A stretch of 62,145 bases of DNA, filler included, from Basidiobolus ranarum (taxonomy: Eukaryota): NCBI GenBank assembly GCA_040143965.1. It is 23 parts of 23 records of this genome, joined end to end, with 100 filler letters (N's around TTAATTAATTAA, not from the genome) between each part and the next. Parts side by side here need not be neighbours in the genome. Positions count along the whole stretch, not along the records: positions 2,717 to 5,332 come from JASJQH010003142.1; 22 more parts are not named here. One strand, 5' to 3'. Below, piece by piece: positions 2,976 through 61,976 of the stretch. The stretch's first letter is position 1, and each line of letters starts with the position of its first letter. The notes beneath the pieces were generated by a model. The model did no database searches, was not told the origin of the DNA, and saw only the letters and a program-made list of their open reading frames with translations. Made by a program: the position numbers and the translations under genes.

Positions 2976-4393
2976 TGTTGAAATTAGCATTACCTAAACA
3001 CCTATATAGTCATATATAGTTTAGTATTTAGTTACCATCTATTTCACTACAATATTACCCATTATTCACAATTGGAACTTACTTAGTATATTTCTACCAA
3101 CTTACAACTTCTTGAATGTATAGATTTTTCAAACTTATGCTAGAAACCCAAAACCTTGCACACATGTTTCTGGGACCTTCCTTAACATATTCTACATGCT
3201 AGTTTACTTACATCTTGACTAAACTATATATATCTACTTTCAACTCAATATATCAATAAGTGAAAACCACCAACAACTCTAATACTGCAAGCCACTTCCA
3301 CCAGGCTTGCAAACACTTTAACAGGCTAAGAGCCCCAAGCTTGTACTCTCTACAATATCTACTATTCCAACTTTTGGAACTTTTGCTTATTCTGAAAAAT
3401 TGAGAACCAATATCATATTTGGAAAATTAAAATAAAAATGCTGTTGCAAGAAAAAGGACTCTGGGACACTGTTGTGGGGGATGAAAGCAATGCAAAACTG
3501 TCTGAAACCAAAGTTTTACTTCTAGTTAACAAAGAACAAAGTGTCTTTAACACAATTTGTCTTGAAGTCAAAGACAAATAAATAATTCAATGTTCAGGAG
3601 CAAAAACTGCCAAGGAAGTATGGAAAGCCTTGGTAGACACCTACCAAGCATGCTCTGCTGCCAACAGATGTTTCTAGGAAGACAATTCTTTAACCAAATG
3701 ATGAAGTCAGGAGAAGATGTTAAATCACTAATTAACAGAGTTGCTATTTTAGTATATGAAATGTAATGTAATGGAGTGCCTACTACTGATCAGGATATCA
3801 TAGTTACAGTCCTCAATAGCCTGTTAGTCAAATTTCAGAGCCCAAAAATGGCTCTGGAATCACAAACTGAAAATTTGACCCTGACTACTAATTGGGCAGG
3901 CTTCTGAATTAAGATATATTATTAATTCAACAATTAATATCTGTATGCAAAGCTTCCTCAGAAGGGCTAAAACTGAACTTTATAAGTGAAGATACACTAT
4001 CACTGATCAAAATGAGAATTATTTAGCTTTGGGAGAAAAGGATTAGAACTTATATAAGCCCACATATAATCTAAGAGACTTGTGTGTCAATAACAATTCT
4101 TTCAATCAATAAAATATTCAATTATGGCACAAAAGAGTTAGTAATACTAGTTTTGATTATTTGAGTAAACTGATCTACAATTTCTTAATTTTTGGAATTC
4201 AAATTAACCTCCAACCAAAGTGGAAATCTATGATGATTGAATATATGGAAAATAAACCAACCAACTGCTCAGGGGCCCTGGCGCAAGGCAACCTGTCCAA
4301 AACTGGATCTAACACATTAAGATATGTGTAGACTGATATAAACTTATCTTTGGGTGGAAAAAGATATTTGAACATCTTTATTGATGATTATAT
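2976..4393 (+). mobile_element. Degenerate Ty1/copia family A: 5' LTR-A (2976-3323), decayed PBS (3324-3336), gag and pre-integrase remnants
   Basis: LTR TGTTGAAATTAGC...TTTAACA. Gag-like WKIKIKMLLQEKGLWDTVVG; GAG-pre-integrase QLWHKR. Many stops. Confidence 0.9.
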
Positions 4394-5332
4394 TGCTGAA
4401 ATTAGCATTGCCTAAACACCTATATAGTCATATATAACTTAGGAATTGATTATCTTATAACTCACTAAGATATTATCAATTATTCTCAATCAGAATTTAC
4501 TTTGAATATTTTTACCAACTTAGAAGTTCTCAGATATATAAATTTTTCAAACTTGTGCTAGAAGCCCCAAACTTTGCACACATGTTTCTGAGACATTCCT
4601 TAACATTTTCTACATGTTAGTTTGCTTACATCTTGGCAAAACTATAAATGCCAACTTTCTACTCAATAAATTAATAAGTGAAAACCATCAATTCCTCTAA
4701 TTCTCCAAACCACTTCCAACAGGCTCCCAAATGCTTTAACAGGTTATGAGCCCCAAGTTTGCACTCTCTGTAATGGCTACTTCTCAAATTTATGGAACTT
4801 TTCCCTCTTCTGAAAAATTGGATGGAACCAATTATCCAGTTTGCAAAATTAAAATGAAAATGCTGCTGCAAGCAAAAGGACTTTGAGACACTGTTGTAGG
4901 AGAAGAAAACAATGCAAAACTATGTGAAACCAAAGCTTTACTCCAGGTTAAAAAAGAACAAAGTGCCTTCAACACAATTTGTCTCAATGTTAAAGACAAA
5001 TTGCTAATTTATTGTTCAAGTGCTAAAAGTGCCAAGAAGGTATAGAAAGCCTTGGAAGACACCTACCAAACAAGTTCTGCTGCCAACAAGATGTTTCTAA
5101 GAAGACAATTCTTTAACTCAAAGATGAAGCCAGGAGAAGACATTAAATCACTGATTAATAGAGGCACTATTTTGGTAGTTGAAATGGAATGCATTGGAGT
5201 ACCTACTACTGATCAAGATATCATACTTACAGTCCTGAATAGACTGCCACACAAGTTTCAGAGCCTAGTAATGGCTCTAGAATCAAGAACTGAAAATTTG
5301 ACCTTATAATATGTATTTGGCAGATTTCTGGA
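4394..5332 (+). mobile_element. Second copia family A element nested in the first: LTR-A 4394-4741, PBS 4742-4754, gag from 4746
   Basis: LTR-A followed by GGTTATGAGCCCC and gag (...EDTYQTSSAANKMFLRRQFFNSKMKPGED...). Confidence 0.92.
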
Positions 5333-5432
5333 NNNNNNNNNNNNNNNNNNNNNNNNNNNNNNNNNNNNNNNNNNNNTTAATTAATTAANNNNNNNNNNNN
5401 NNNNNNNNNNNNNNNNNNNNNNNNNNNNNNNN

Positions 5433-8047: not shown

Positions 8048-8297
8048 NNNNNNNNNNNNNNNNNNNNNNNNNNNNNNNNNNNNNNNNNNNNTTAATTAAT
8101 TAANNNNNNNNNNNNNNNNNNNNNNNNNNNNNNNNNNNNNNNNNNNNCAAGTTTATCGTTGATGTTGAAGAGATTGATATCACTAAACTATGTTTAACTT
8201 GGCCGTAACACCTCCTGCCATATTACACCATGTCTATAAAGACTCGGCTTAAGAACCATGCTCCGAGTAACTATTGACGATTCTTATCACCTTCCTT

Positions 8298-8954
8298 ATG
8301 AGCACCAGAAGCTTAGATGATATTTCTTGCGCCAGCTCTGAGCCTAGCCCTGTGGCCGATAGCTATGAAATCGACCGGCTTTTAAGAGAGTTTAATCCAG
8401 AAGCTACTGTATCAGTACATAACGGTGGACGAGCAGTGAAAGCCAAACGAAAGCGGGCCAATCCTCATCAAATTAAAATGCTAAATCAAATATTAAGCCG
8501 TAATAACTTTCCATCGAAAGAGTTGCGAGAAAAGATTGCTCAAAAAGTGGGCATGCATCCAAGAAGTGTTCAAATATGGTTCCAAAATAAAAGGCAAGAG
8601 ATGAAGAAGAAACCCCAATCTAATGATGAACTTTCGCCAGATGCTCATAACTCTCCTGAGAGTACCACTTTCTCAATGAGTGAACCTTCCCACCAACCCA
8701 TCGAATCACTAGGAAACATCAAGCTACCATCTATATCTAACTTACTAGTATCTAGCGATAAGTACGTACAGTCGAACATTCGAAGTGGTTCCAGTACTCG
8801 TCTTCATATACTACCTTACCCTCATCCAATGCATAGGCACACTATACCAAAACTTAAATTACCAGTGCGTTCCGTGGCGAATCTATTTCCTTACCAGGCC
8901 AAACTACGACAGGATCTTCTGGAACTTAAGGCTCCGCTAGAGTTTCGTCTGTAA
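8298..8954 (+). CDS. Homeodomain transcription factor (218 aa)
   Basis: KRKRANPHQIKMLNQILSRNNFPSKELREKIAQKVGMHPRSVQIWFQNKRQ contains the canonical helix-3 WFQN(K/R)R. First ATG is at 8298. Confidence 0.93.
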   Translation: MSTRSLDDISCASSEPSPVADSYEIDRLLREFNPEATVSVHNGGRAVKAKRKRANPHQIKMLNQILSRNNFPSKELREKIAQKVGMHPRSVQIWFQNKRQEMKKKPQSNDELSPDAHNSPESTTFSMSEPSHQPIESLGNIKLPSISNLLVSSDKYVQSNIRSGSSTRLHILPYPHPMHRHTIPKLKLPVRSVANLFPYQAKLRQDLLELKAPLEFRL

Positions 8955-9448: not shown

Positions 9449-9868
9449 TTAATAAGTAAAACCGTGAGGTCTCTCGACAACAAAACCTCTAGCAGCCTTT
9501 ACTCTGGTTTCGTGAGGTTGCTTTACATTGTGTACTTTCAAAATCTCCTTCAACTTCAAGATCGTACCTGCAACATCAGAGGTTTGGGGTCTAAACACAG
9601 TTTGTTGCAATCTTCTAAAACCCAAAGCCTTGACAGCTCTACGGGTTTTAGGGTGAAGACCAATACAGGAACGAATCAAAGTAATTTTGAAGAAACCAGT
9701 GGGCTGAAGCTTGTTTCCTTCGTCAACAGTCTTCTTGGCATCTTTTGAGAGCCATTTGTAAGCATTCTGAGCCTTTTGTCTGGCATATTCTTGATCAGGC
9801 AGTTTCTGAGTGGGTTCTGAAATACGTGGTACAACACGTCTAACAAAAAGGCTTCTAGTTGCGTTCAT
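9449..9868 (-). CDS. MRPL33: Mitochondrial large-subunit ribosomal protein uL30m (MRPL33-like)
   Basis: Arg-rich presequence-like MNATRSLFVRR, then L30 domain FFKITLIRSCIGLHPKTRRAVKALGFRRLQQTVF...VAGTILKLKEILKV. Confidence 0.85.
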   Translation of the reverse strand: MNATRSLFVRRVVPRISEPTQKLPDQEYARQKAQNAYKWLSKDAKKTVDEGNKLQPTGFFKITLIRSCIGLHPKTRRAVKALGFRRLQQTVFRPQTSDVAGTILKLKEILKVHNVKQPHETRVKAARGFVVERPHGFTY

Positions 9869-10466
9869 GGTTAAAGGAGAAAGTAAATAGTTCTTGCGAC
9901 TAAGGAAACACAGTACGAAAGACAATGCAACTCGAATTTGACCATTCCCCAAGTCAGTAGAAATTTTTCCCTACGCTAAACTGCTCAAAAATTTGGAAGT
10001 GACATTTGATTGGATGTGAATTGATTTCATTGAAGCATACTGAATTGCATATGAAGTTGCTTATCCATTTCAAGTAATTTATTCTAATTTGACATCTACA
10101 TTAATTAAGCAACAAATTCCACAGAAACACACAATTAAACAGCTAGTCATCAGGTAATTAAAGATAGCAAGAACACAGTCAAACACAACCACAACGCTTG
10201 CTGAAATGCACTAAGAAATGCAGGTTGAGGAAGGAACCAGTATGTAGACTCAGCGGCCTAGTCAATGCAAGAATGAAATAGAGATTTGGATGGTTCAAGA
10301 GCTATCAAGTACTTGGTAGGATTCAAACTATTCTTAGGCTAATGTCGATAAATCCATAAATAAAAAACTCAACTTGACTCAATGAAAACATGCATACTTT
10401 ATTACGATACAAAGTAAAAGAGAGAAATCAATCTAAGTTGGACTAAATAACGTTAATTATGAGTTC

Positions 10467-10742
10467 TTAAGCGGAAGGAGTGGTCTGCTTTTGAGCTTGG
10501 GTACCCTCACGGAATCCATTCTTAAAACGACGAGATACGTTCTTAAGATGTCTCATGCGACCAGTACCGGTGGTCTTTCTACGCTTAGCCTTTTGGCCCC
10601 AGTTGAAGCTACGAAGCTTAGCGGCAGGATATCCGCAAGAAGCACAGGTCTTCTTTTGGTTGTGGAAAGAACGTTTACCACAACGACGGCAGAGAGTGTG
10701 ACTCTTGGTGTGACGCTTACCAAAACTTTGGGTACCCTTAGT
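10467..10742 (-). CDS. RPL37: 60S ribosomal protein eL37, last exon (ATG exon lies beyond the contig end)
   Basis: TTTAG acceptor, then [66 protein letters not shown]...TAA. Confidence 0.97.
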
Positions 10743-12295: not shown

Positions 12296-12624
12296 TGTTA
12301 AAGTATTTGGGAGCCTGTTGGAAGAGGTTTGGAGAATTAGAGAAATTGGTGGTTTTCACTTATTGATTTGTTGAGTTTTCAGTTGACATTTATAGTTTTG
12401 TCAAGATGTAAACAGACTAACATGTAGAATATGTTAAGGAAGGTCCCAGGAACATGTGTGCAAAGTTTGGGGCTTCTAGCAAAAGTTATCAAAATCTATA
12501 TATCTGAGAACTTCTAAGTTAATTCCTCATGAGAATAATGGATAATATCTTAGTGAAATATAAGATAATCGAATACTAAGCTATATATGACTATATAGGT
12601 GTTTAGGCAATGCTAATTTCAACA
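12296..12624 (-). repeat. Solo LTR-A with perfect 5-bp TSD (GATAT)
   Basis: GATAT at 12291-12295 and 12625-12629 flanking TG...CA. Confidence 0.95.
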
Positions 12625-15264: not shown

Positions 15265-15988
15265 TGTCAATGTGTTTGGGAGCCTGTTGGAAGTTGTTTG
15301 GAGATTTAGAGAAATCATTGGTTTTGACTTATTAGCTTATTAAGTAGTAAGTTGACATTTATAGTTTGGTCAAGACGTAAACAAAATAATGTGAAGAATA
15401 TGTTAAGAAAGGTCCCAAGAACATGTGTGCAAAGTTTGGGGCCTCTAGCACAAGTTTTAAAAGTCTATATATCTGAGAACTTCTAAGTTGGTAAAAATAT
15501 TCCAAGTAAATTCCAATTAGGAATAATGAAAAATATCATAATGAAATATAAGATAACTAAGTACCAAGCTATATATGACTATTTAGGTGCTTAGGCAATG
15601 GTAGTTTCAACACTCTCCCTCAGCTAAATAGTCATACAAACTAATCTTAATAAAGGTCTAAATTTCTCAAATTTCTGTCTAGTAAATTGTTTAGTTAATA
15701 TATCAGCAGTCATGTCTTCTATAGAGCAATAAGTCAATAAGCTTATTCTGTAGAGTCTCTTTCATGAAGTGATGCTTAACATCTATATGCTTGCTTCTAT
15801 TATGAAACATGGGATTTTTAGCTAATTTGATACAACTTTGATTATCTTGAAATATTGTAGTTAGTGCATTTCGAGAACAGCCCAAACCTGTTAAGAGTAT
15901 TCTTAAACATATTGCATCTTTTGTTGCTTCACAGGGAGCCGCGTATTCAGCTTCTGTTGTGAAAGTGCTATAGTAGGTTGTTTCTTTG
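15265..15988 (-). mobile_element. Copia family A 3' end: RNase H, polypurine tract (PPT) and 3' LTR-A (15265-15612)
   Basis: IFQDNQSCIKLAKNPMFHNRSKHIDVKHHF; purine tract GAGGGAGAG before the LTR TG. Confidence 0.92.
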
Positions 15989-17832: not shown

Positions 17833-18902
17833 ATGTCAGTTTATTTACTAGATTACGGAGCTGGTAATGTTCGCAGCTTACTAAATGCTGTTAACAAGTT
17901 GGGATACGAAATCCTCATCGTCAAGGAACCGGCTGATATTCTCAAGGCTGATGTAAGTAGTGCGTCCCTGGTTATTCTATAATAAAGCTACTTACTAACG
18001 TTCCGTAGAAAATCATCTTTCCAGGTGTTGGCGCTTTCGGTAGCGCTATGGATGCTCTTGTAGCCAAAGGTTACGTAGAGCCCATCAAGCAATACATTGC
18101 TTCCGGTAAGCCTTTTATGGGTATTTGCGTCGGGATGCAAACAATGTTTGAAGGTTGCGAAGAATCTCCTGGTGTAAAAGGTTTGGGTATTGTCCCCGGT
18201 ATTGTCAAGAAATTCAATTCTACCAACAAGGCTGTCCCTCACATGGGTTGGAACGAGGCCGAATTATTGAAAATACAACAAACTGGCCAACAGAAGAGCT
18301 TTGGTATCAATTCTGGTACTGTGTATTACTTCGTTCATTCTTATGCTGTACCTTATTCCGAGGCGCTCAAAGATTGGGCTTTCACTACTACTCAATATGG
18401 CGATGAAGTCTTTGTCAGTTCTATTCAACGTGAGAACGTCTTTTGCACCCAATTTCATCCTGAAAAGAGTGGATTTGCTGGTTTAAGAATCTTGAGGGAG
18501 TTCCTTTCCGGGAATACTGATATTAACGAAAGCGATATTATCTACAAGACTCCAACACCCAAGCATGATTGTTTCACCAAGCGTATTATTGCTTGCCTAG
18601 ATGTTCGTGCAAATGATACCGGTGACTTGGTAGTTACTAAAGGGGATCAGTATGATGTACGTGAGAAACCTGATGGTGACTCTAAGGGAGATGTTAGAAA
18701 CCTAGGAAAGCCTGTGGAACTTGCCAAGAGATATTTTGAGGAGGGTGCGGATGAAATCACTTTCCTCAACATCACCAGTTTCCGCAATTGCCCTCTTGGA
18801 GATCTTCCCATGTTGGAGGTATTAAGACGTCCAGCGGATACTGTCTTTGTACCTCTTACTATTGTTTGTGGAATCCGGTATTTTGTTGCTGATGGTCGTA
18901 GT
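17833..18902 (+). CDS. HIS7: Imidazole glycerol phosphate synthase HisH-HisF, 5' part; exons 17833-17952 and 18009-18902 (runs off contig)
   Basis: LDYGAGNVRSL, FPGVGAF, GICVGMQ, VPHMGWN, YFVHSY, QFHPEKSG, RIIACLDVRAND. Intron GTAAGT..CGTAG keeps the frame. Confidence 0.97.
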
Positions 18903-22194: not shown

Positions 22195-24175
22195 ATGCCA
22201 TTCAAAAAGCATTCCAAATCTAAATCAAAATCTGCTTTGAAGCCAAAGCCTATTTACACAAAAGGAAAAAAACCAGCAAAAACAAAGGACTTATTTGATG
22301 AGCTGTCTAGCAATCCACTATCCACTTTGGAAGGCATTAAAATGCCAGAAACTAAGTCAAATAATGATGAAGCATTAGACAATTTATTAGATGTGTTCCT
22401 TTCCAGCAACAGTGCAAGTGGAGAGATTGTAATACCTCAATTACATAGTAAATCAATAGTTGAGCAAATTTCAACCAAAACACCATCAAAACTATCAACT
22501 TCCAAAATAGCTACTTTGCCCACTATTGAACAACCCTCTGCAGACAATTTAGATAAAATTATTACAACAAGGGAGTCACAGGCAGAACACCATAACAATT
22601 TGTATGCCATCATAAGTAAAAACTACAAAGTTGCTATACAGGCCTTGACAAGTAATAATGCTGCAATATTGCAATTAATGCAGCATTTGGAAGCAACTGG
22701 TCACCAGTTAGAGAGACACTCAACAATGATACAAGACCTTCAGAATGCTGTACTTGAGCTTCAGCAACATGGTGCTCCCTCTGTCTATTCTCATATGGGA
22801 TTTAAATCAATCCCACACCATATGTATGAATGTCTCCATGACAATCTAGCAAAGCAGAAAATGTGTTGGACTGTTAAGCCTACACAATGATCTGAAATTG
22901 CTTGGGCACATGAAAATAGAAATCTCATAGAAAACCGGCAAACTAAAAGACTGTGAATGTCAGAGCTGCCATCACTTGCTCCGATGATCAGTGGTTTGAC
23001 ATTTTGGAAACTATGTGGAATCTGGCCCAAAATCACCTGGATTGGAGCCAATTGTGGAAAAACCAAAAACTAGGCGTTATTCTGCAGGTTCTTGACTTAT
23101 TTCATGTGGCTTATCCTGGGTTTTTGCAAGTAAATGGCACTGGGGTTAGTATTGGCCTATTTGTGAAACATCACAAAAATGTATGCAATTATCAACTTGA
23201 AAAAGAAAGAACAGCAGCTAAAGAAGTATTCAAGGAGCAGGAAGTTAGAAAACCCAGGTGAAAAGCAAAGGAGCCAGTGAGTTTAGGCTCTACTGTACCA
23301 CTTAACAAATTCTTCACACCATTACAAAGATCTGCATTTCTGGAGTTAGATATACTGGCAAAAAAGCTTAATTTCACCATAAAACTAGATATGCCAGTTA
23401 GAAGAGTGCTAAATCCACTAGTTTATCCAACACCTGGCACCTCTCAACAAGCCAAAACACCAGCAAATAAAATTCATGACTCTTCAACCTTAACAGGTAC
23501 TTTCCAAAGTGTTGAAATTAGCACCAAAGTTAAAGGCAATCAAAAGACCACACAAACACCACAAAGCACCCTGAGTAGTTTCACACTACAAGAATGTATG
23601 AAAAGAGTAAAAGTGCTTGAGGGATATTTTCAAAAGTATGAAGGGAAAAACACAGTGCAAGTATGCAGAAAGTGGCCTCAGAAGAACATTCAACTTCACA
23701 TTCAGTCTGGTTTTGACCATGCAGATTTCTGGGAAGAACTTAATACAGAGTGGCACAATATTGCAGGGTATCTGCCAGATACCTGAAAGAATGTTGATTC
23801 AGCAATGTTAATACAATGGTGGGCTTTGATGAAGATATTCATATAAACTTGTAGGATATGAGTTAAACCTTGGGTATGAAGAACTCTATAAAAGTACTCA
23901 GGAGAATATATAAATGAAACTATGGATTTCAAAGGTGACAAATTAGCTTTCAAATGGTAAATGTGTAGCATTTGAGTTACATTTTTTGCACATATGTTGA
24001 TCCAAAGTTTGCTGGGATTGTAGCCGATCATGTGCAACTACCTTGCAAGATCTCAAAATATCACCCCTGAAACAGAAATAATTGATTAAAATCAAATCTA
24101 GCTTGAAGATTTTGTGATGGTAAGTAAAAGGTCAATCCAAAATGAATTAAAATAGTGATGGCTATCCTACAATAA
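22195..24175 (+). mobile_element. CMC accessory ORF (~22195-23930; stops and a frame change) plus degenerate left-end region
   Basis: ORFs 22195-22890, 22953-23261 and 23277-23786 are colinear. Homologous copies at 27133-27400, 39750-40107 (-), 44960-45957 (-) and 49277-49843; those at 27133, 44960 and 49277 run toward a CCCTAACAGAAAT end. Confidence 0.8.
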
Positions 24176-26076: not shown

Positions 26077-27032
26077 TGCTAAAGTATTTGGGAGCCTGTT
26101 GGAAGTGGTTTGACAAGTTAGAGAAGTAGGTGGTTTTTACTTGTTGATTTATTGAGTAGAGAGTTGACATTTATAGTTTTGTCAAGATGCAAATAAGCTA
26201 CATGAAGAATGTGTTAAGGAAGGTCCCAGGAACATGAGTGCAAAGTTTGGGGCTTCTGGCACAAGTTTGAAGATCTATATATCTGAGAACTTCTAAGTTG
26301 GTAAAAATAATCAATGCAAAATCTGATTGAGAATAATATATAATATCTTAGTGAATTATAAGATAACCAAGTACCAAGCTATATATGACTATGTAGGTGT
26401 TTAGGCAAAGCTAATTTCAACACTCTCCTTCAATTCAATGGTCATATAAAAATCCTAATAAAGGTCCGAATTTCTCAAATTTCTGCCTAGCTAATGTTTT
26501 GGCTAATATATCAGCAATCATATCTTCTGTAGAACAATAAGTTAAGTCAATATGCTTATTCTCTATTGTCTCTCTAATAAAGTGATGCAAAATATTCACA
26601 TGTTTGCTTCTATTATGAAATAAGGGTTTTTTAGCTAATTTGAGACAACTTTGATTATCTTTAAATATTTTAGTTGGTGAATTTTGAGAATATCCAAAAT
26701 CTGTTAACAGTTATCTTAACCATATTGCTTCTTTTGTTACCTCACAGGCAGCCATGTATGCACCTTTGTTGTTGCATGTGCTATGGTAGGTTGTTTCTTT
26801 GAATTCCAAGAAATAGCTCCATGACAGCAAAGTAATAAATATCCTGTTGTAGATCTCCTGTATTCAATATCTCTTCCCAAATTTGCATCTGAATATCCCA
26901 TCAGAGCAAAATTTGATCCCAAATATGTGTATTTTAAGCATAGATCCACAGCACCTTTCAAATATCTGAAAATCCACTTAACTGCTATGATTTGATCAGA
27001 TCCATAATTTTGAAGATATTGGCACATAACTC
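26077..27032 (-). mobile_element. Copia family A 3' end: RT/RNase H, PPT and 3' LTR-A (26077-26422)
   Basis: IFRYLKG, GYSDA, RRSTTGY, ISWNSKKQ; GAAGGAGAG tract before the LTR. Confidence 0.92.
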
Positions 27033-27132: not shown

Positions 27133-27668
27133 GAAAGTGGCTTCAGAAGAAGAACATCCAACTTGAAATTCAGTCTGGTGTTGACCATGCAGATATCTAG
27201 GAAGAACTTAATACAGAGTGGCACAATATTGCAGGGTATCTGCCAAATAGCTGGAAGAATGTTGATTCAGAAATGTTAATACAATGGTGGGCTTTGATGG
27301 AGATATTGATACAAACTTGTGTTGGGTATAAGCTAAAACTTGGGTATGAAGAACTCTATAAAAATATTCAGGAGATTATATCAAAGAGACTAGGGATTTT
27401 GAAGGAGACAAATTAGTGTTCAAGTGGTAATTGTGTAAAATTTGAGTTACATTTTTTGCACATGTGTTGATCCATAGTTCTCTGAGATTGTAGCCAATCA
27501 TACGCAACTTTTTTGCAAGATTTTGAAATTTCACTCCTGAAACTGAAAAAATTGATTAAAATCAAATCTAACTTGACAATTTTATGATGGTAAGTAAACA
27601 GTCAACCCCAAATGGATTAAAATTATGATGGTTTTCCTACAATAACAATTCTCAAATTTCTGTTAGGG
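27133..27668 (+). mobile_element. CMC accessory ORF 3' part and left terminus (...ATTTCTGTTAGGG)
   Basis: Homologous to 23670-24170 and to the reverse complement of 15989-16190. Confidence 0.87.
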
Positions 27669-31028: not shown

Positions 31029-32445
31029 AGTTGAAATTAGGTAAATAGCAACTCAATATTTCGTAGTTAGTTTATTCATATTCTGATTATTTAGCTTTCA
31101 ATTATGCCATTCAAAACATGTGTTTATTGCTCTAATTGATAGAAATATCAATTAGATCACTTTCACCAATTTACACTATTTTCTCAAAACTTCACCAAAT
31201 CACCTCAAATTTTTAACCATGCTTAACAGGCATGTTTGTTACAATCTATGCATGTCAAATAAGTCTAATTTATAGTAAACTTTAAATAGGACATATTCAA
31301 TTCAATAAAGCATATATCCAAATCTTGTCTAAAACATTACCAAATCCCTTATACACTTTTATCAGGTTATGAGCCCCAAACTAGCTGTTAAAGGAAAACC
31401 TACCAGTACTATTACCAATGTTTTTGCATCCACAGAGAAGTTTGACGGTGTATACTTTCACCTTTGGAAGTTCAAGATGCAATTGGTGCTAGAAGACACA
31501 GACCTTTGAAGATTTGTTACAGGAGAAGATATAGCATCAGAGGGACCACCAAAAGCTATACTTGCCTTTCACAAGAAGCAGATGAAAGCACTCTCTACAT
31601 TTTGTCTTCAACTTAGAGACTCACAGTTGAGGCAAATACAATCAGCCAAAAACATTCAAAATGTTTGGGAAACACTTGAGGGAATATATGAGACTAATTG
31701 TCTGGCTAATAGGCTACATCTTAGGTGAAAATTGTTCTCAATTCAGATGAATTTTGATGATTTCATGCTTAATCATATAAATCAGATAAAAATATGGCAG
31801 GTCAGCTCTCATCCATTGCAGCACCTCTAAATGAAGATGACTTAGTCATGATACTACTTGGAAGCCTGCCAAAAGAATTTGAGAACCTCATAATTACCCT
31901 AGAATTAAGATCTGATCCATTAACAATGTAATATGTTGATGCAAGGTCCTTGAATGAGGAATAAAGGAGATATAATTCTCAGCAAAATGAAGCCAAACAG
32001 GCATTTTTTGAAGCTGTAAAACATCAAACATGCTTCAGTAATGGTGCCCTTAACATGCCCTTAATAGGAAATCAATCATCTGTAAGTATTGCAAGAAATC
32101 ATGCCATTTAATCAAAGTTTCCAGAAAAAGGATTTTTGCCAAAAAGATAAAATTGGAACAAGCAAATCAAGTAAGAGCTGATAGGGTTCATCTACTTGTA
32201 TCTACCCTATCAGTAACTACTAAAGAAGACTCAAAAATGTGATACATTGATTCAGGAGCTTCCCAGCATATATCAAACAAGAATGATTGGTTTTCCAGCA
32301 TAAACCAATCCAAACAAGGAGAGTCTATATAAGGGATAGTTATGCACTAGATGCAGATGGTAAGGGTGAAGTTGTGCTCAGTTTGTTGAATTTGGGTAAA
32401 TAGCCACTCATTATTTAGGAGTGAGCTTATGCATATTCTGATTAT
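31029..32445 (+). mobile_element. Copia family B 5' end: LTR-B 31029-31364, PBS 31365-31377, gag-protease from 31369
   Basis: ...TTTTATCA GGTTATGAGCCCC; EKFDG..FHLWKFKMQLVLED; LLGSLP; IDSGASQH. Confidence 0.92.
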
Positions 32446-37953: not shown

Positions 37954-38908
37954 ATCTCCTTAATTCTTCATTCAAAAGCCTACCACTAACATATTCCATT
38001 GTTAATGGCTCTGATCTTGATTCTAGGGCAATTATGAGGTTCCCACACTCATCTGGCAGGCTCCCAAGTAGTGTCATGACCAAGTCATCTTCATTTAGAG
38101 GTGCTCCAATGGATGAGAGCCTATCTGCCATAGTTTTTTTCCGATTAATATGATTAAGCATAGAATCATCAGGTTTTGTCAGAATTGAGAGCAATTTTTG
38201 CCTAAGATATAGCCTATTAGCCAGACTTTTAGTCTAATATAGTCCCTCAAGTGTTTCCCAAGCATTTTTGATATTTTGGCTGATTGTATATGCCTCAATT
38301 GAGAATCTCAGAGATGCAGACAAAGTGTAGAGAGTGCTTTCCTCTGCTTCTTGCAAAAGACCAGGATAGCTTCTGGTGGTCCCTTTGGCCCTATTTCTTC
38401 TGTAACAAATCCCAAAGGTCCTTGTCTTCTAGCACCATTTGCATCTTGAACTTCCAAAGGTTAAAGTCTTTGCCAACAAACTTCTCTGTAGATGCAAAAA
38501 CATTGGTAATAGTACTGGTAGACATTCCTTTAGCAGCTATCATGGGGCTCATAACCTGATAAAAGCGTTTGCGGGATTTGGAAGTGTTTTGGGAAAGATT
38601 TGGATTTGTGAATTAGACACCCAAGTTTTATGCAATTGAATATATCCTATTTATAGTTTACTATGAAATAGAACTATTGGACATGCATAGATCAGAACAA
38701 ACATGCTTGTTAAGCATGGGTGAAAATTTGAGGTGATTTGGGGAAGTTTTGAGAAAATAGTGAAAATTGGTAAAAGTGCTCTAATTGACATTTCTGTCAA
38801 TTAGAGCAATAAACACACGTTTTTGAATGACAGAATTGAGTACTAAATAATTGGAACATGAATAAACTAACTACTAAATAATGAGTTGCTATTCACCTAA
38901 TTTCAACA
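37954..38908 (-). mobile_element. Copia family B 5' end: LTR-B 38557-38908, PBS 38544-38556, gag from 38552
   Basis: GGTTATGAGCCCC directly after the LTR CA; gag LWKFKMQMVLEDKDLW, LLGSLPDE, ALESRS. Confidence 0.93.
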
Positions 38909-40556: not shown

Positions 40557-40809
40557 NNNNNNNNNNNNNNNNNNNNNNNNNNNNNNNNNNNNNNNNNNNN
40601 TTAATTAATTAANNNNNNNNNNNNNNNNNNNNNNNNNNNNNNNNNNNNNNNNNNNNATTCAACTTCAACCACCACCCTAAGACAATATCGTTTGTTGTGA
40701 AGAATGAGAAGAAGGAGAGAGCTTAATATTCTCACCACTTCTCCACATACTCACTTCAGGCAATATCTAATATGGTTATTATAAGCTTTTGGAGGAAGAA
40801 AAAATACGC

Positions 40810-40882
40810 GCCCGGATAGCTCAGTCGGTAGAGCATGAGACTTTTAATCTTAGGGTCGGGGGTTCGAGCCCCCCTTTGGGCG
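40810..40882 (+). tRNA. tRNA-Lys(TTT)
   Basis: Cloverleaf; anticodon arm TGAGA-CT-TTT-AA-TCTTA; GTTCGAG T-loop; T-run terminator. Confidence 0.96.
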
Positions 40883-41210
40883 TTACCTTTTTTTTACTTT
40901 GGGATTGTGGGAATCTCCTTGCAGCCTGCCTTGCTATGAGAGACTATCTCTACCTCAATGATTCTCTCCCATCAAATCATGCGCCTCTCATCTCATCTTG
41001 GCATGAGCTTTCTCCATTTTTAAATGTGCTGCCTGCCTGCCAAAACCTATGGGGAAAATGTGGAATAGCTTGTGGGCTAGGGGCCATGCTACAACTCCTA
41101 TAGGATACAATAACAACAATGATGCCGTCGGCTTTTTATAGGCATAAGTAGACCTCGAGCTATATCAAAAATCTCCAATCTGTTGGTTGAGCTAAGTAAA
41201 AAAGTATACT

Positions 41211-41284
41211 TGCTCACAGCAGGGGTCGAACCTGCGGCCTTGGCGTTATTAGCACCACGCTCTAACCAACTGAGCTATGCGAGC
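41211..41284 (-). tRNA. tRNA-Ile(AAT)
   Basis: GCTCGCATAGCTCAGTTGGTTAGAGCGTGGTG-CT-AAT-AA-CGCC...GGTTCGAC...GTGAGCA, followed by TTTTTT. Confidence 0.96.
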
Positions 41285-41289
41285 AAATC

Positions 41290-41371
41290 CGACAACAGCA
41301 GGATTTGAACCTGCGCGGGCAGAGCCCATATGATTTCTAGTCATACGCCTTAACCACTCGGCCATGTTGTC
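41290..41371 (-). tRNA. tRNA-Ser(AGA)
   Basis: GACAACATGGCCGAGTGGTTAAGGCG-TATGA-CT-AGA-AA-TCATA, long variable arm, GGTTCAAATC, G discriminator. Confidence 0.96.
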
Positions 41372-41596
41372 TAATACAGATGGTCACCCATTTTTAGAAA
41401 CAAATTTGTCTTCCTGAAAGGCTGTCATACTCTTCCTCGTCAGAGCTGTCCTCCTGACTAGTAGTTCACTATACGTTACCTTACCTTGGCTTTTTGCGTA
41501 GTAATTTCTTGTCCTGCCGCTGCATTGATCCCTTTTCAGTCAGTGTTCCTCTCTAATTAATATTATAAATTGGCTTTTATGTAGCACAAACAGATA

Positions 41597-41668
41597 AGCA
41601 GCGTGGCGCAGAGGAAGCGCGCGGGGCTCATAACCCCGAGGTCGGAGGATCGAAACCTCTCGCTGCTA
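41597..41668 (+). tRNA. Initiator tRNA-Met(CAT)
   Basis: A1-T72 pair, consecutive G-C pairs in the anticodon stem, GATCGAAA T-loop (A54/A60): eukaryotic initiator features. Confidence 0.97.
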
Positions 41669-42599
41669 TCTTTTGCTTGCTTTAAAAAATCCATATTGAT
41701 GAAGTTCTCCACTTCTTTTCTTGATCGTTGCAGATGCCCTTTTTTAACGCATATTCTAACAAGCTTACTAACTACCTCTCAGGCTAGGCTATTCTCCAAA
41801 AGAAAATCGAAAAATGTCTTTTTTCGTAAAGCCTTTTCTTAGGTTTTTGCGGTAGGTGTGTGTAGTGTAGACTTACTGAACAGTCATTTCTCTCCTCATC
41901 GTTCAGAGTAAATGCTGACTTCAGCGGTGCTGGATTTCCAAAATCTAAGCCTGGCTTAGTTTGGGAGTGTAACGATTCGATTCGATTCCATTTCATTTCG
42001 TTTTGTTTCGTTCCTCTTTGTTTTCTTAATCCTCTCTCACAACTGTCAGTTTTTTGTTCGAATATTTCCTGCTTGAATCAGGATCTGTGTTGTATATTTC
42101 TTAGCCAGTTTACGCCTGAAAAATAATTGAAACAAAATTTTAAATAGACGCAAGGATATTTATTTTACTGTTTGAGGCTTAGGGTTACTGGAAACTATAC
42201 TTATTACTGTCATTTTCGCACCCAAAATGATCAAATAAAAATCGAGAATTTTTCCAGCATTCCAGTAATCGTACTCACAGCATTTAGCACATTCGGAGAG
42301 GGCCTCGTGGAGTCGAACATCAGTCCACAAATACCGCCAACCCCAAAGAGCTCCACTACGCTAAAGCTCTTGCTTATGGATAGTTAGTGCCTCACTTCAC
42401 GATATACCAATAGGTTCTCTTTCAAGTATACACATTGTTGAAAGCGTCTAGATCTCCCTTACTTTCAAGAGCAACTTTGTGTACTATATGGAGCTGGTTG
42501 GTTAGCTGGGTGGGTGAGTGGATTACAGTGTAAAGCTCTATTGTGAACTTGACAAATTCTCTCAGAATTATATCGTTTTCCCTGATAGCTGTTATATTC

Positions 42600-42671
42600 T
42601 CCTCATTGGTCCAGTGGTTAGGATTTCTCGCTTTCACCGAGACGGCCGGGGTTCGATTCCCCGATGGGGAA
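42600..42671 (+). tRNA. tRNA-Glu(TTC)
   Basis: TCCTCAT...TCTCG-CT-TTC-AC-CGAGA...GGTTCGATTC...ATGGGGA-A. Confidence 0.95.
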
Positions 42672-43036
42672 TATAACTTTTAGCATGTTCACCAAATGAA
42701 CACCACATGCGTGTAAGACTGCTCAACCTGGGCACTTATCTGAACAGCAAGCAAGCAAGTCCAAAAATAGCATGGGTGTTTGTTAGCTAAGAAGTACTTT
42801 TCCCTGATTCTTAACAAGTCCATGCATTAAGTGAGGCAGATATCTCCTACTTTTTCCACACCGGGGTTGGCACTCTTTCTCCTGTCTGACCACATTAATC
42901 CTAACCCAGAAGCAGAACGTCACAAAGAGCAGTCCCTAACCCTAACCATTTGGTCAGAATGTGTATGTGATGTGATGTATATCATACTGTTAGAATAAAT
43001 CAACATATTTTTTCCCCATATACAACCCTCATCAAT

Positions 43037-43109
43037 GCTTCCTTAGCGCAGTTGGCAGCGCGTTAGTCTCATAATCTGAAGGTCGCCAGTTCGATCCTGG
43101 CAGGGAGCA
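43037..43109 (+). tRNA. Elongator tRNA-Met(CAT)
   Basis: GCTTCCTTAGCGCAGTTGGCAGCGCG..CT-CAT-AA..GTTCGATC..GGGAGCA; G1-C72 and standard TTC loop. Confidence 0.94.
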
Positions 43110-43357
43110 ATTTTGCTCAACCGAGCTAGCACACTGGAGGGTGTACTTAACGTACTAGCAGCTGTTACCCCCCTCCCTCGCTCTCAATGGTATGCTGTAC
43201 TCTATCAAATGGCTTCATTATGACTGAGCAAAGACCTGTCTGTTTTATTTTCGATCCNNNNNNNNNNNNNNNNNNNNNNNNNNNNNNNNNNNNNNNNNNN
43301 NTTAATTAATTAANNNNNNNNNNNNNNNNNNNNNNNNNNNNNNNNNNNNNNNNNNNN

Positions 43358-48286: not shown

Positions 48287-48655
48287 TCACAAGTTACTGC
48301 GAGGCCTGCATTCATTCTCAAAGTACTCTTTTACGTCTTTGCGGATTTTTAATGCGCACCCATACGCAAGGGTATAACCAGAGCCTCCATGACCGTAATT
48401 ATGAAAGATCTTAAGGTTCTTATCATCTTGACCTACGCATGGCTCATCGCGGAATGGTCGAATTCCGACTCGGTAATAATAATCAGGGAATTCAGCCTTG
48501 GCTAAGTCTGGGTGTAAATTGACGCATCCAACTTTCAGTTTTCCCAGGTACTGATGCTCTTTTTCATTCCACTCAAGTGTTTCTTGACCCATTTGCGCAT
48601 AACCACCAAGAATAAGAATATCATCGTTTCTTGGTACGATGAACTCGAATCTTCC
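48287..48655 (-). CDS. D-amino-acid oxidase family FAD oxidoreductase, 3' part
   Basis: FIVPRNDDILILGG...RVGIRPFR...IFHNYGHGGSGYTLAYGCA; the C-terminal SNL resembles a PTS1 variant. Confidence 0.9.
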   Translation of the reverse strand, partial: GRFEFIVPRNDDILILGGYAQMGQETLEWNEKEHQYLGKLKVGCVNLHPDLAKAEFPDYYYRVGIRPFRDEPCVGQDDKNLKIFHNYGHGGSGYTLAYGCALKIRKDVKEYFENECRPRSNL

Positions 48656-48756
48656 TNNNNNNNNNNNNNNNNNNNNNNNNNNNNNNNNNNNNNNNNNNNN
48701 TTAATTAATTAANNNNNNNNNNNNNNNNNNNNNNNNNNNNNNNNNNNNNNNNNNNN

Positions 48757-49276
48757 ATTGTTTTCTTCTCCTACAACAGTGTCCCAAAGTCCTTTTTCTT
48801 GCAGCAGCATTTTCATTTTAATTTTCCAAACTTGATAATTGGTTCCAACCAATTTTTCAGAAGAGGGAAAAGTTCCATAAATTTGAGAAGTAGACATTAC
48901 AGCAAGTGCAAGCTTGAGGCTCATAACCTGTTAAAGTATTTAGGAGCCTGTTGGAAGTGGTTTAGAGAGTTAGAAGAAATTGGTGGTTGTCACTTATTGA
49001 TTCATTGATTAAAGAGTTGACATTCATAGTTTTGTCAAGATGTAAAAAAACTAACATGTAGAATATGTTAAGGAAGGTCCCAGGAACATGTGTGCAAATC
49101 CTGGGGCTTCTTGCACAAGTTTAAAAGTCTAAATATCTGATAATTTCTAATTTGGTAAAAAAATTTTAAGTAAATTCCAACTGAGAATTATTGATAATAT
49201 CCTACTGAATTATAAGATAACTAAACACTAAGTTATATATGACTATATAGGTGTTTAGGCAATGCTAATTTCAAAA
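48757..49276 (-). mobile_element. Copia family A 5' end: LTR-A 48929-49276, PBS 48916-48928, gag from 48924
   Basis: GGTTATGAGCCTC; MSLKLALAVMSTSQIYGTFPSSEKLVGTNYQVWKIKMKMLLQEKGLWDTV. Confidence 0.93.
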
Positions 49277-50113
49277 GATGTTACCATGTAAGTAAGTACA
49301 CCAGTTGGAAGAGTTCTAAATGCAGAAGTTTATCCAACACCTGGCACCTCTCAACAAGCCAAAACACTGGCAAATAGAACTCATGGCTCTCCAACCTCAA
49401 CTGATACTTTTTGTAGTGTTGAAATTAGCCCAAAACTTAAAGGCAAGCAAAAAGCCACACAAACACCACAAAGCACCCTTGGTAGTGTCACACTACAAGG
49501 ATGTATAAAAATAGTAAAAGTGCTTGAGGAGTATTTTCAAAAGTATGAAAGGGAAAATGCAGTGCAAGTATGCAGAAAGTGGCTTTGGAAGAAGAATATT
49601 CAAGTTGACATTCAGTCTGGTGTTGACCACAGAGATATCTGGGAAGAACTTAATACAGAGTGGCAAAATATTATAGGTTATCAACCAGATAGCTGGAAGA
49701 ATGTTGACTCAGCAATGTTAATACAATGGTGGGCTTTGATGGAGATATTGATACAAACTTGTGTTGGATATGAGCTTAACCTTGGGTATGAAGAACTCTA
49801 TAAGAATATTCAGGAGAATATATCAAAGAAACTAGGGATTTGAAAGGTGACAAACAGCATTCAGGTGGTAAATGTATAAAATTTGAGTTATGTTTTTTGC
49901 ACATATGTTATTCCATAGTTTTCTGAGATTATAGCCAATCATGTGCAACTATTTTGTGATGTCATGAAATTTAACTCCTGAAACTGAAAAATTTGATTAA
50001 AATCAAAGCTAACTTGATGATTTTATGATGGTAAGTAAGTAAGTGGTCAGTCCAAAATGGATTCAAATTGTGATGGTTTTGTTAAAATATCAATCCTTAA
50101 GTTTCTGTTAGGG
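49277..50113 (+). mobile_element. CMC accessory ORF 3' half and left terminus (...TTTCTGTTAGGG)
   Basis: ORF 49520-49843 is homologous to 23617-23930. Confidence 0.87.
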
Positions 50114-59448: not shown

Positions 59449-59548
59449 NNNNNNNNNNNNNNNNNNNNNNNNNNNNNNNNNNNNNNNNNNNNTTAATTAA
59501 TTAANNNNNNNNNNNNNNNNNNNNNNNNNNNNNNNNNNNNNNNNNNNN

Positions 59549-59723
59549 AAAGATAGCTAATTTTACTCCCACAGATGTTTTGAACACAACCCCAATGTTA
59601 GTTTTCTGTATTTCCATCATCATATATAAATGCTTTATTTCTGGACAATAATTAATTATCTCACAAAGCTATTCACAACTCCACTTTTCTAAAGTTCCTC
59701 CAAACAGCCCATATTTTGCCAAT
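59549..59723 (+). repeat. LTR-D 3' part
   Basis: Aligns with the reverse complement of 27687-27860. Confidence 0.8.
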
Positions 59724-61976
59724 AAATTCTGCAACTTAAAGATGAAGCCAGGAGAAGATATTAAAACACTAATTAATAGAGTCACTATTTTAGTAGATGA
59801 AATGAAATGCATTGGAGTACCTACTGCTGATCATGATATCATAGTTACAGTCTTGAATAGCCTGCCACACAAGTTTCAGAGCCTAGTAGTGAATCTAGAA
59901 TCAAGAACCAAAAATTTGACCTTAAATTATATATATGGCAGACTTCTGGATGAAGATTTATGCAAATCAGGATCCAACCAAAAGAATGAAGAAAATGCCT
60001 TAAAAGGATATGGGAATCCTTCCTATAAAGGTCTGAAACACTTTAAGAAGAAAAGTAACACATTCTGTGAGTACTATAAAAGAACTGGCCATTTAAGCAA
60101 AGATTGCTTTAAAGGGATTGCAAAAGAAGAAAAATATACTGAATCTGGAAATGTGATTACAACAGAAGATCACTTATTCATATCTGCTCTATCAATGACT
60201 AGCAACAAGGATTCTTGGACATGGCATACTGATTTTGGAGCCTCCCAACATTTCACAAATGAGAAACATTGGTTCGTGGATTATGAAGAAATCCTAATCA
60301 GAAAGTTTTTATGGGAGCTGACCACACATTGAATGCTATTGGAATGGGAACAATTCAAGTCAATTTAACTGGAGCTTCTGAATAGAAAGTTCATACTCTC
60401 AAGGATGTACTACATGTTCCAGATATTGCCAAGAATTTGATAACTGTATGCAAGGCCAACTCAGAAGGGCCAAAATTCAATTATGATAAGTCAGGATGCA
60501 CCATGACTGATCAAAATGGGAATTATTTAGCTTTGGAAGAAAAGGATCAGAATGTACACAAGCTTACATATAGTCCAAGAGGTTTATTTGTAAACATAAG
60601 TTATTCCAATCAAGAAACTATTCAATTATGGCATAAGAGATTAGGTCATATTGGATTTGATTATTTGAGCAAAATGATCAAAAATCACCTAGTTTCTGGA
60701 ATTGAAATTAACCCCCTCCCAACAAAAATGGAAATTTGTGAGAGTTGTATACATGCAAAACAAGCCAAACAACCATTTAAGATTTAAGATGATTTAATCA
60801 AATATGTCAAAAAATTGGATCTAATTTATTCAGATTTGTGTGAACCTATGCCAAATTATCTTAAGGTGGAAAAAGATATTTAATCACATTTATTGATAAT
60901 TATAGAAGATACATTTGGGTCTACTTTTTAGAAAGAAAAGAAGAAGCACTCTCCATCTTTAGTGATCTTAAAACTCTGAAACTGCAACTAAAATCAAGAA
61001 AAAACATGGAAATAATGGTGCAGAATATATTTCAACACTATTTAAGCACTTTTGCAATGTTCAAGCAATTAAGGAAGAAATTGCTGCCCCTTATTCACCT
61101 CAACAAAATGGAGTTGCTGAAAGAGCCAACAGGACCATAATCAAAATGGCTAGCTCTGTGATAAATGCACAAAACTTATCTCATAACTTTTGGGTGGAAT
61201 CTGTTGCTACCGCTGTATATCTGAAGAATAAGAGCTTTACTAGAAGTCTTTCTAACTCTACACCTTATCAAGCTTGGTTTGGAGCTAAACCAAATGCAAA
61301 ACATTTGAGGATCTTTGGATGCATTGTTGATGTCAAAATTATGACCAAAAATTGGTCAAAACATGACCCAAAAAGTAATAAATGTATATTTCAGGGTTAT
61401 TGCACACAAACTAAGGCCTACAGACTCTGTGGTACCAAAATTTCCAAGTTAATCAAGTCCAGGGATGGTTTGTTAAATGAAAGTGCAAAATTTTCACCCA
61501 AAATGACCTCAGATGATGATGAAAATCAATTTTCTCCTGATCCAATCATTCAAATTGATTCAAACCAAAACAATCAAGAAAATAGCATTCCTGTGGACCC
61601 TTCATCCAAAATTCTGCCTACTGAAGTGCCCAATACAATGCCAGAAGTTTTAGTACCTTTATCCCAAACCAGGAGGTCAAATTGGATCAGAAATAGACCT
61701 GATTACTATATCAATGACTCCCAAAATTGGGCTTATGCCTGCACAGCTTAGATACAAGAGCCCCTGACAGTAAAAGAGGCCCTAAATGGCCCTTGCATGA
61801 AATTTTGGAGATCTGCTATGGCTGATGAGTACCAGGCTTTGATTGATAATCAAACTAGAGCTTTGACCATCTTACCTGATGATAGAAGATCAGTTGGCTG
61901 CCAATAGTTATTTAAAGTTGAATGCAGCTCTGATGGCAATATAGAAAGGTACAAGGCAATCCTAGTAGCCAAAGGC
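59724..61976 (+). mobile_element. Degenerate copia family A gag-protease-integrase-RT
   Basis: Zn knuckle CEYYKRTGHLSKDC, WHTDFGASQH, LWHKRLGH..CESC, QQNGVAERANRT, FWVESV, KCIFQGY, LVAKGY; copia domain order. Confidence 0.95.

Follow-up and report, generated by a model that had tools for sequence, protein, structure and literature searches.

In Drosophila copia and in Ty5, the primer for reverse transcription is a 5' fragment of the initiator methionine tRNA (tRNAi-Met) cut in the anticodon stem, and the copia polyprotein start lies downstream of copia's primer site. Half-tRNA priming is already textbook knowledge for this virus family, and its mechanism is known. Drosophila copia, 1731 and Volvox Osser (genus Hemivirus) use the kind of half-tRNA priming that we propose for the elements described here. 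Excerpts of one study (PMC1181622) state that hemivirus primers end at standard position 40 and that half-tRNA users are not a single branch on reverse transcriptase (RT) trees; because they are spread over these trees, phylogenetic grouping is a weak criterion for Hemivirus. Among fungal elements, the same kind of primer site is in print, in the excerpts considered, for Ty5 of Saccharomyces (also SaCEN-Ty5 and Tkp5). The Candida albicans copia elements Tca2/zeta and Tca5 are described in part of a further paper as having a site that matches an internal region of tRNAi-Met, with the Tca5 frame said to begin within the left LTR (PMC4139406). In plants, an excerpt reports primer sites complementary to 1/2 tRNA-Met for Osser, Bryco and part of Gymco-II, with no mention of a start codon (PMC6317226).

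We analysed a stretch of 62,145 nucleotides (the window, positions 1-62145) from an early-diverging fungus, Basidiobolus ranarum, in which LTR retrotransposons of two families, A and B, carry a 13-mer, GGTTATGAGCCCC, at the first base past the 5' LTR. On sequence grounds, this 13-mer is very likely a half-tRNA primer binding site. As a whole explanation for these dead copia elements of two families, we have high confidence that half-tRNA priming, combined with an ATG inside the site as the Gag start, would hold; priming and tRNA cleavage we infer from known relatives. An early-diverging fungus would then join the known hosts of half-tRNA-priming copia elements. Compared with Ty5 by primer site, the host here is an early-diverging fungus and the far end of the site follows the host's own tRNA (GGGG at 28-31). 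Compared by description with Tca5, the window frame is proposed to begin at the site, past the LTR, while plant Osser, Bryco and Gymco-II belong to another host kingdom than the window elements.

Element copies and the contigs that carry them

The window consists of 23 unlinked contigs, ordered by length from 2616 down to 2597 bp, with 22 linkers between them, and any reading across a linker is an artefact. Because these are separate contigs, the elements and the tRNA gene have only their assembly in common and no physical linkage: the tRNA cluster has a contig of its own, and the five element copies lie on four others. The original prediction, which placed the tRNAi-Met gene in the same window as the elements, therefore stands as a statement about the assembly and not about linkage. 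We also considered whether A1 gag followed by RT at 5389 might represent an internal deletion, and rejected this, as the linker at 5333-5432 separates two contigs. The features of the window are as follows.

2617-2716, 5333-5432, ... 59449-59548: linkers, 100 bases each (44 N + TTAATTAATTAA + 44 N)
4394-4741, plus strand: 5' LTR of A1 (family A), TGCTGAAATT...TTTAACA, with a CTATAAAT box ~95 nt before its end
4742-4754, plus strand: candidate primer binding site of A1, 13/13 complementary to tRNAi bases 27-39
4746-4883, plus strand: gag N-terminus of A1 from the site's ATG, MSPKFALSVMATSQ...KLDGTNY.., 46 codons and then a stop
5046-5306, plus strand: gag domain of A1 (Retrotran_gag_2, E 6.8e-20); the contig ends at 5332
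2976-3336, plus strand: A0, with LTR at 2976-3323 and decayed site at 3324-3336 (GGCTAAGAGCCCC)
48757-49276, minus strand: A2, with LTR at 49276-48929, site at 48928-48916 (1 mismatch) and gag N-terminus at 48924-48757, to the contig end
31029-31364, plus strand: 5' LTR of B1 (family B)
31365-31506, plus strand: site and gag N-terminus of B1 (site 31365-31377, 13/13; ATG at 31369), MSPKLAVKGKPTSTITNVFASTEKFDG..WKFKMQ
38557-38908, minus strand: 5' LTR of B2 (family B), TGTTGAAATTAGG...TTTTATCA
38394-38556, minus strand: site and gag N-terminus of B2 (site 38556-38544, 13/13; ATG at 38552)
38233-37901, minus strand: gag domain of B2, continuation
12296-12624, minus strand: solo LTR of family A, with a 5-bp duplication, ATATC, on both flanks
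26077-26422, minus strand: 3' LTR of family A, preceded by the polypurine tract GAAGGAGAG, with no site after it
15612-15275, minus strand: second LTR with a preceding polypurine tract, GAGGGAGAG
59652-61748, plus strand: family-A-like internal part with gag, Pol_BBD, gag_pre-integrs and integrase (rve_3)/SH3, in that order
240-524, 8271-8951, 9452-9970 (minus), 10470-10742 (minus), 18009-18902 and 48290-48700 (minus): host gene pieces

Every copy in the window is broken by stops or contig ends, no contig holds a whole element, and A1 is nested within A0 on one contig. All Pfam domains recovered are copia-type (Retrotran_gag_2, gag_pre-integrs, Pol_BBD, SH3_retrovirus, rve_3 and RVT_2), and gypsy-type Pfam domains were absent from the 104 open frames of at least 75 aa. 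RVT_2 falls on other contigs than the internal part at 59652-61748, so that no window contig spans integrase and RT; the integrase-before-RT order is seen in an intact relative, P0119/L001 (gag 33-194, rve 477-576, RVT_2 833-1074). The LTRs, ~348 bp in family A and about 340-350 bp in family B, have the overall form TGTTG...CA: they start with TGTTGAAATTAG or variants of it in both families and end in TTTAACA in family A and TTTTATCA in family B, which gives the pattern TTTA(A/T)CA. A polypurine tract, GA(A/G)GGAGAG, lies ahead of the LTRs at 15612 and 26422. These LTR tips, the tract and the position of the site are those of Ty1/copia elements (Pseudoviridae), as is the 5-bp target duplication, for which the solo LTR at 12624-12296 (ATATC) is the single example. 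Judged by sequence, the elements are dead Ty1/copia LTR retrotransposon fragments of a fungus, and the copia identity first proposed for them is borne out by these domains, LTRs, duplication and tracts.

Families A and B are ~41% identical in the LTR (155/381 columns) and 55% identical over the next 150 nt, while the site is identical at 13/13 bases; the longest invariant run in the 657-column A/B alignment is CAGGTTATGAGCCCCA. Since LTR tips, site and gag are common to both, we read the two families as diverged branches of one lineage and not two independent inventions. The earlier description of two LTR families is accurate as regards the divergence of their LTRs, and it needs this amendment as regards their origin.

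Pieces of host genes are interspersed with the elements and encode ARD dioxygenase, a homeobox protein, the ribosomal proteins L7 (L30p family) and L37e, HisHF and an FAD oxidoreductase. The top protein matches of the HisHF fragment (298 residues, 18009-18902) are from Mucoromycota, at 66-71% identity; as no database protein exceeds 71%, the collection contains no close sequenced relative of the host. We also observed a third repeat family at 23371-24149, 27133-27619 and 49278-50038, whose copies are 83-90% alike and have open frames of 174-244 aa. These frames gave no Pfam match below E 0.04, and one copy adjoins the family-A LTR at 49276 on its outer side.

Match between the 13-mer and the initiator tRNA

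The tRNA-Met gene at 41597-41668 combines A1:U72, a GGG/CCC anticodon stem (three G:C pairs) and the T loop ATCGAAA, which are marks of eukaryotic initiator tRNAs, and by these features we take it to be the initiator. No LTR fragment was found on the contig of its cluster, which holds six tRNA genes.

40809-43110, both strands: tRNA cluster of 2.3 kb with Lys-TTT, Ile-AAT, Ser-AGA, initiator Met, Glu-TTC and elongator Met
41597-41668, plus strand: initiator-type tRNA-Met (CAT), 72 bases, called by ARAGORN and Rfam
43036-43110, plus strand: elongator tRNA-Met, used as control, with G1:C72 and T loop GTTCGATCC

In a search of the window, GGTTATGAGCCCC was exact at 4742-4754 (plus), 31365-31377 (plus) and 38544-38556 (minus), with one mismatch at 48916-48928 (minus) and two at 3324-3336 (plus), and its reverse complement is the sense strand of the tRNA gene at 41623-41635. 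Allowing up to 2 mismatches, the window holds 6 matches versus 0.58 expected, and 6 were reached in 0/100 shuffles. The original prediction had reported the three exact sites directly after the 5' LTR, one site with a mismatch, a decayed one at 3324 and an exact 13-nt reverse complement of nt 27-39 of tRNAi-Met, and we could reproduce each of these, the tRNA gene being called by both ARAGORN and Rfam. To that account we add that two of the sites (38556 and 48928) lie on the minus strand and that the copy at 3324 has lost its ATG, which is now AAG.

As the gene lacks position 17, its bases 27-39 are standard positions 28-40. In the tRNA, pairing takes in the entire anticodon loop, the 5' side of its stem and two bases of the 3' side, and complementarity ends at both edges of the 13-mer. 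The match is to the initiator anticodon arm; the arm of the elongator tRNA-Met at 43036-43110 does not match. In all five copies the site begins at the first base past the LTR end, and 3' and solo LTR copies are without it.

A TGG-type site, which would indicate priming from an intact tRNA 3' end, had been named beforehand as the observation that would speak against half-tRNA priming. Among the LTR-to-gag junctions, 5/5 have the 13-mer and 0/5 a TGG site. Searching the window for a site fitting the intact tRNAi 3' end (TGGTAGCAGCGAG, up to 3 mismatches) returned 10 matches versus 6.7 expected, all with at least 2 mismatches and none at an LTR end. The elements do not have the canonical 3'-end tRNAi-Met priming arrangement of the genus Pseudovirus; as in hemiviruses, the site is complementary to the internal anticodon stem-loop of tRNAi-Met and adjoins the LTR. 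This initiator-specific 13/13 match beside the LTR supports the half-tRNA reading put forward originally.

Reverse transcription would be expected to start at the LTR/site boundary. Because DNA synthesis would start there, the 3' end of the primer would be gene base 39, which is standard position 40, and a primer that must end at this position would be a 5' tRNA fragment cut in the anticodon stem, as in copia and Ty5. Two other primers are conceivable: the intact tRNA, and a stress-type half produced by a cut in the anticodon loop, with its end near 33-38. Halves cut in the loop are the commonest tRNA fragments, which counts in favor of the latter. However, complementarity reaches position 40 and stops at the LTR, both in the window and in the relatives L001 and L023 described below; a loop-cut half would leave 2-7 LTR-side bases of the site unpaired, and an intact tRNA has no free 3' end at the LTR/site boundary. 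We therefore regard either of these primers as very improbable and favor the position-40 fragment.

We also looked for a second box of complementarity, as in the two-part sites of Ty1/Ty3, and rejected it, since no exact match of at least 7 nt is common to the copies. In family B, a 6-mer, GCTG(T/C)T, at 31385-31390 and 38536-38531 (minus), seven to eight bases past the site, is complementary to tRNAi bases 1-6. It paired with those bases in co-folding; the match is at chance level and is absent in family A.

The ATG within the site

The site has the layout GGTT-ATG-AGC-CCC, whose ATG is complementary to the anticodon CAT. In 5/5 window copies, the frame from this ATG is the gag frame, and N-termini read from it begin MSPKFALSVMATSQIYGTFPSSEKLDGTNY.. 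in family A and MSPKLAVKGKPTSTITNVFASTEKFDG..WKFKMQ in family B. Family A has a stop two codons upstream of the site's ATG. In family B, no ATG lies between the CTATAAAT (TATA) box and the site, the window transcription starts being guessed from TATA boxes only. The context of the ATG has G at -3. In B1 it is the sole ATG ahead of the WKFKM motif, while family A and B2 both have a further in-frame ATG at codon 10, and B2 has one more at codon 4.

These features suggest that the site's ATG is probably the gag-pol start codon. Ribosomes would then begin Gag at the same AUG as lies in the primer site, and Gag would start Met-Ser-Pro, its second and third residues being set by the tRNA anticodon arm. 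If so, the anticodon arm of a host tRNA dictates two residues of a retrotransposon protein (Ser-Pro or, in some hosts, Gly-Pro).

Relatives with the same site

We searched JGI metagenome contigs with the peptide pattern WK[FI]KM[QK][ML][VIL], which does not cover the site, and obtained 39 loci; a scan of IMG/VR with a gag-pol alignment gave 97 pattern matches, of which 0 were confirmed. Three loci (L011, L033 and L034) lack 5' sequence and one (L014) lacks the site. A site of the kind ...CA followed by GGTTATG(A/G)GCC, or a decayed form of it, is present in 35/36 loci with 5' sequence. The sequence preceding the site recurs at 100% at the 3' end of the element in L001 (125 bases) and in L023 (123 bases), which places the LTR end exactly at the site.

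The far end of the site varies among relatives (..CCCAA, ..CCCTG, ..CCTTA, GGGCCCAG and GGGCCCAC), and the window form, ..CCCC, is the one that fits the tRNA of the same assembly; the primer site appears to follow the initiator tRNA of its host. Initiators of animals and plants give GGTTATGGGCCC, seen in L007, L028 and L029, as against GGTTATGAGCCC. Loci with GGTTATGGGCCCAC (L028, L030, L035, L038 and L039) look like the plant Osser/Bryco/Gymco-II kind. Hosts with GGGCTCATAACC give MSP and hosts with GGGCCCATAACC give MGP. By the fate of the site's ATG, the loci fall as follows.

In the gag frame, open (n=13): L001, L002, L003, L008, L010, L012, L015-L018, L023, L029, L037
In the gag frame, with one stop (n=7): L024, L028, L030, L032, L035, L038, L039
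Frame lost by a small indel (n=8): L019, L020, L021, L022, L025, L026, L027, L031
Not the gag start (n=7): L004, L005, L006, L007, L009, L013, L036

At the eight indel loci (L019-L022, L025-L027 and L031), we read the peptide from the ATG as matching the gag N-terminus of the sister family. Grouped into about 10 families, the loci have the site's ATG in the gag frame in 7, and 5 of these include at least one uninterrupted copy; in the other 3/10, gag starts elsewhere and the site's ATG opens a short upstream frame. In intact elements, the site's ATG opens the whole gag-pol frame, of 1320 aa in L001 and 1699 aa in L023. No ATG is present in the 100 nt before the site in L001, L003, L010, L012, L023 and L029, so that scanning ribosomes would meet the site's ATG first.

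Could the 13-mer be kept only as coding sequence for Met-Ser-Pro, with the tRNA match a side effect and priming by another route? Its place within the reading frame in 5/5 window copies means that coding constraint could add to its conservation. Against this explanation, none of the 13 bases changes, even at third codon positions, whereas the codons that follow differ between families; L004-L007, L009, L013 and L036 keep the site although its ATG is out of frame or 409-578 nt upstream; and the site always adjoins the LTR end, with no other tRNA-type site beside the LTRs. We consider it extremely improbable that coding alone preserves the 13-mer, and retain the view that it is a primer binding site.

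Protein collections gave a similar range of N-termini. A search of 1.84 billion representative proteins with an N-terminal profile of 133 positions yielded 12,794 matches at E <=0.001, and 105 of the best 150 of these begin with Met and have the motif within 60 residues. Starts among these 105 are MSS in 13 (the commonest), MSP in 10 and MGP in 3. Among the gag-bearing proteins matched by the window's RT fragment, those most like A/B at the N-terminus, P0017, P0019 and P0119, start MSP; they were aligned with the N-terminal pieces of the window ahead of the IMG/VR and JGI scans. Phytophthora ramorum is the one organism named among ten N-terminal relatives. Among the best 150, the nearest intact relative of family A is P0276 (38/54 identical residues, or 70%, at the N-terminus and 58% in gag), which starts MSPELSLSGMSTT (MSPELS) and aligns residue for residue with the window frame from the site's ATG. 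For the RT fragment of the window, the best protein relatives are only 40-49% identical.

These relatives also bear on a second alternative, in which the half-tRNA site is genuine and Gag starts at a downstream ATG, the site's own ATG being merely tolerated in frame. The additional in-frame ATGs of family A and B2 noted above offer such starts, oomycete-like relatives keep an internal in-frame Met 12-19 codons downstream, and one database protein, P0024, is annotated as starting at this conserved Met. In B1, however, there is no other ATG ahead of the WKFKM motif, and the G at -3 of the site's ATG argues for its use. Furthermore, the stretch between the two Met codons stays open and in frame despite its variable length: in five oomycete-like loci, the spacer from the site's ATG to WKFKM is 33, 37, 35, 37 and 34 codons, open and always in frame. 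On balance a downstream start seems unlikely, though far from negligible, and initiation at the site's ATG remains the reading that we prefer.

Initiation at this ATG would have a consequence for the element RNA. The annealed primer, a duplex of 13 bp at -24.9 kcal/mol, would cover the start AUG; because the duplex would hide it, a given RNA could be either translated or primed. It is possible, although we think it less likely than not, that these elements belong to a cross-kingdom copia clade (this fungus together with oomycete-like, moss-like and other hosts) in which the AUG pairing with the initiator anticodon is both the start codon, read by Met-tRNAi on the ribosome, and the center of the primer site, forming an undescribed built-in switch between messenger and genome. 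We found no description of a link between start codon and primer site in the literature, and older print on Ty5, Tca2 and Osser may hold one. The split of LTR-element RNA between translation and reverse transcription would become testable in one short sequence. For annotation, the corresponding signature would be GGTTATG(A/G)GCC after an LTR end, together with a polyprotein whose first residues are MSP or MGP.

Several relatives depart from the common arrangement. In L004, L006, L009, L013 and L036, the site, GGTTATGAGCCTTA, fits a tRNAi whose stem contains UAAGG; the leader is 409-578 nt long, and the site's ATG opens a short upstream frame, MSLNPSHLL..., which is not gag. The moss-like loci L028, L030, L035, L038 and L039 have in common a stop eight codons past the site's ATG, MGPH(R/G)FT*, with no Met between it and the gag motif, which reflects either common descent from one dead copy or a stop that is passed somehow. 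In L023 (128-1375; also L021 and L022), the site's ATG is separated from the usual N-terminal motif of gag by ~415 codons, and this unusually long Gag extension contains repeated ...NMYPSI... units.
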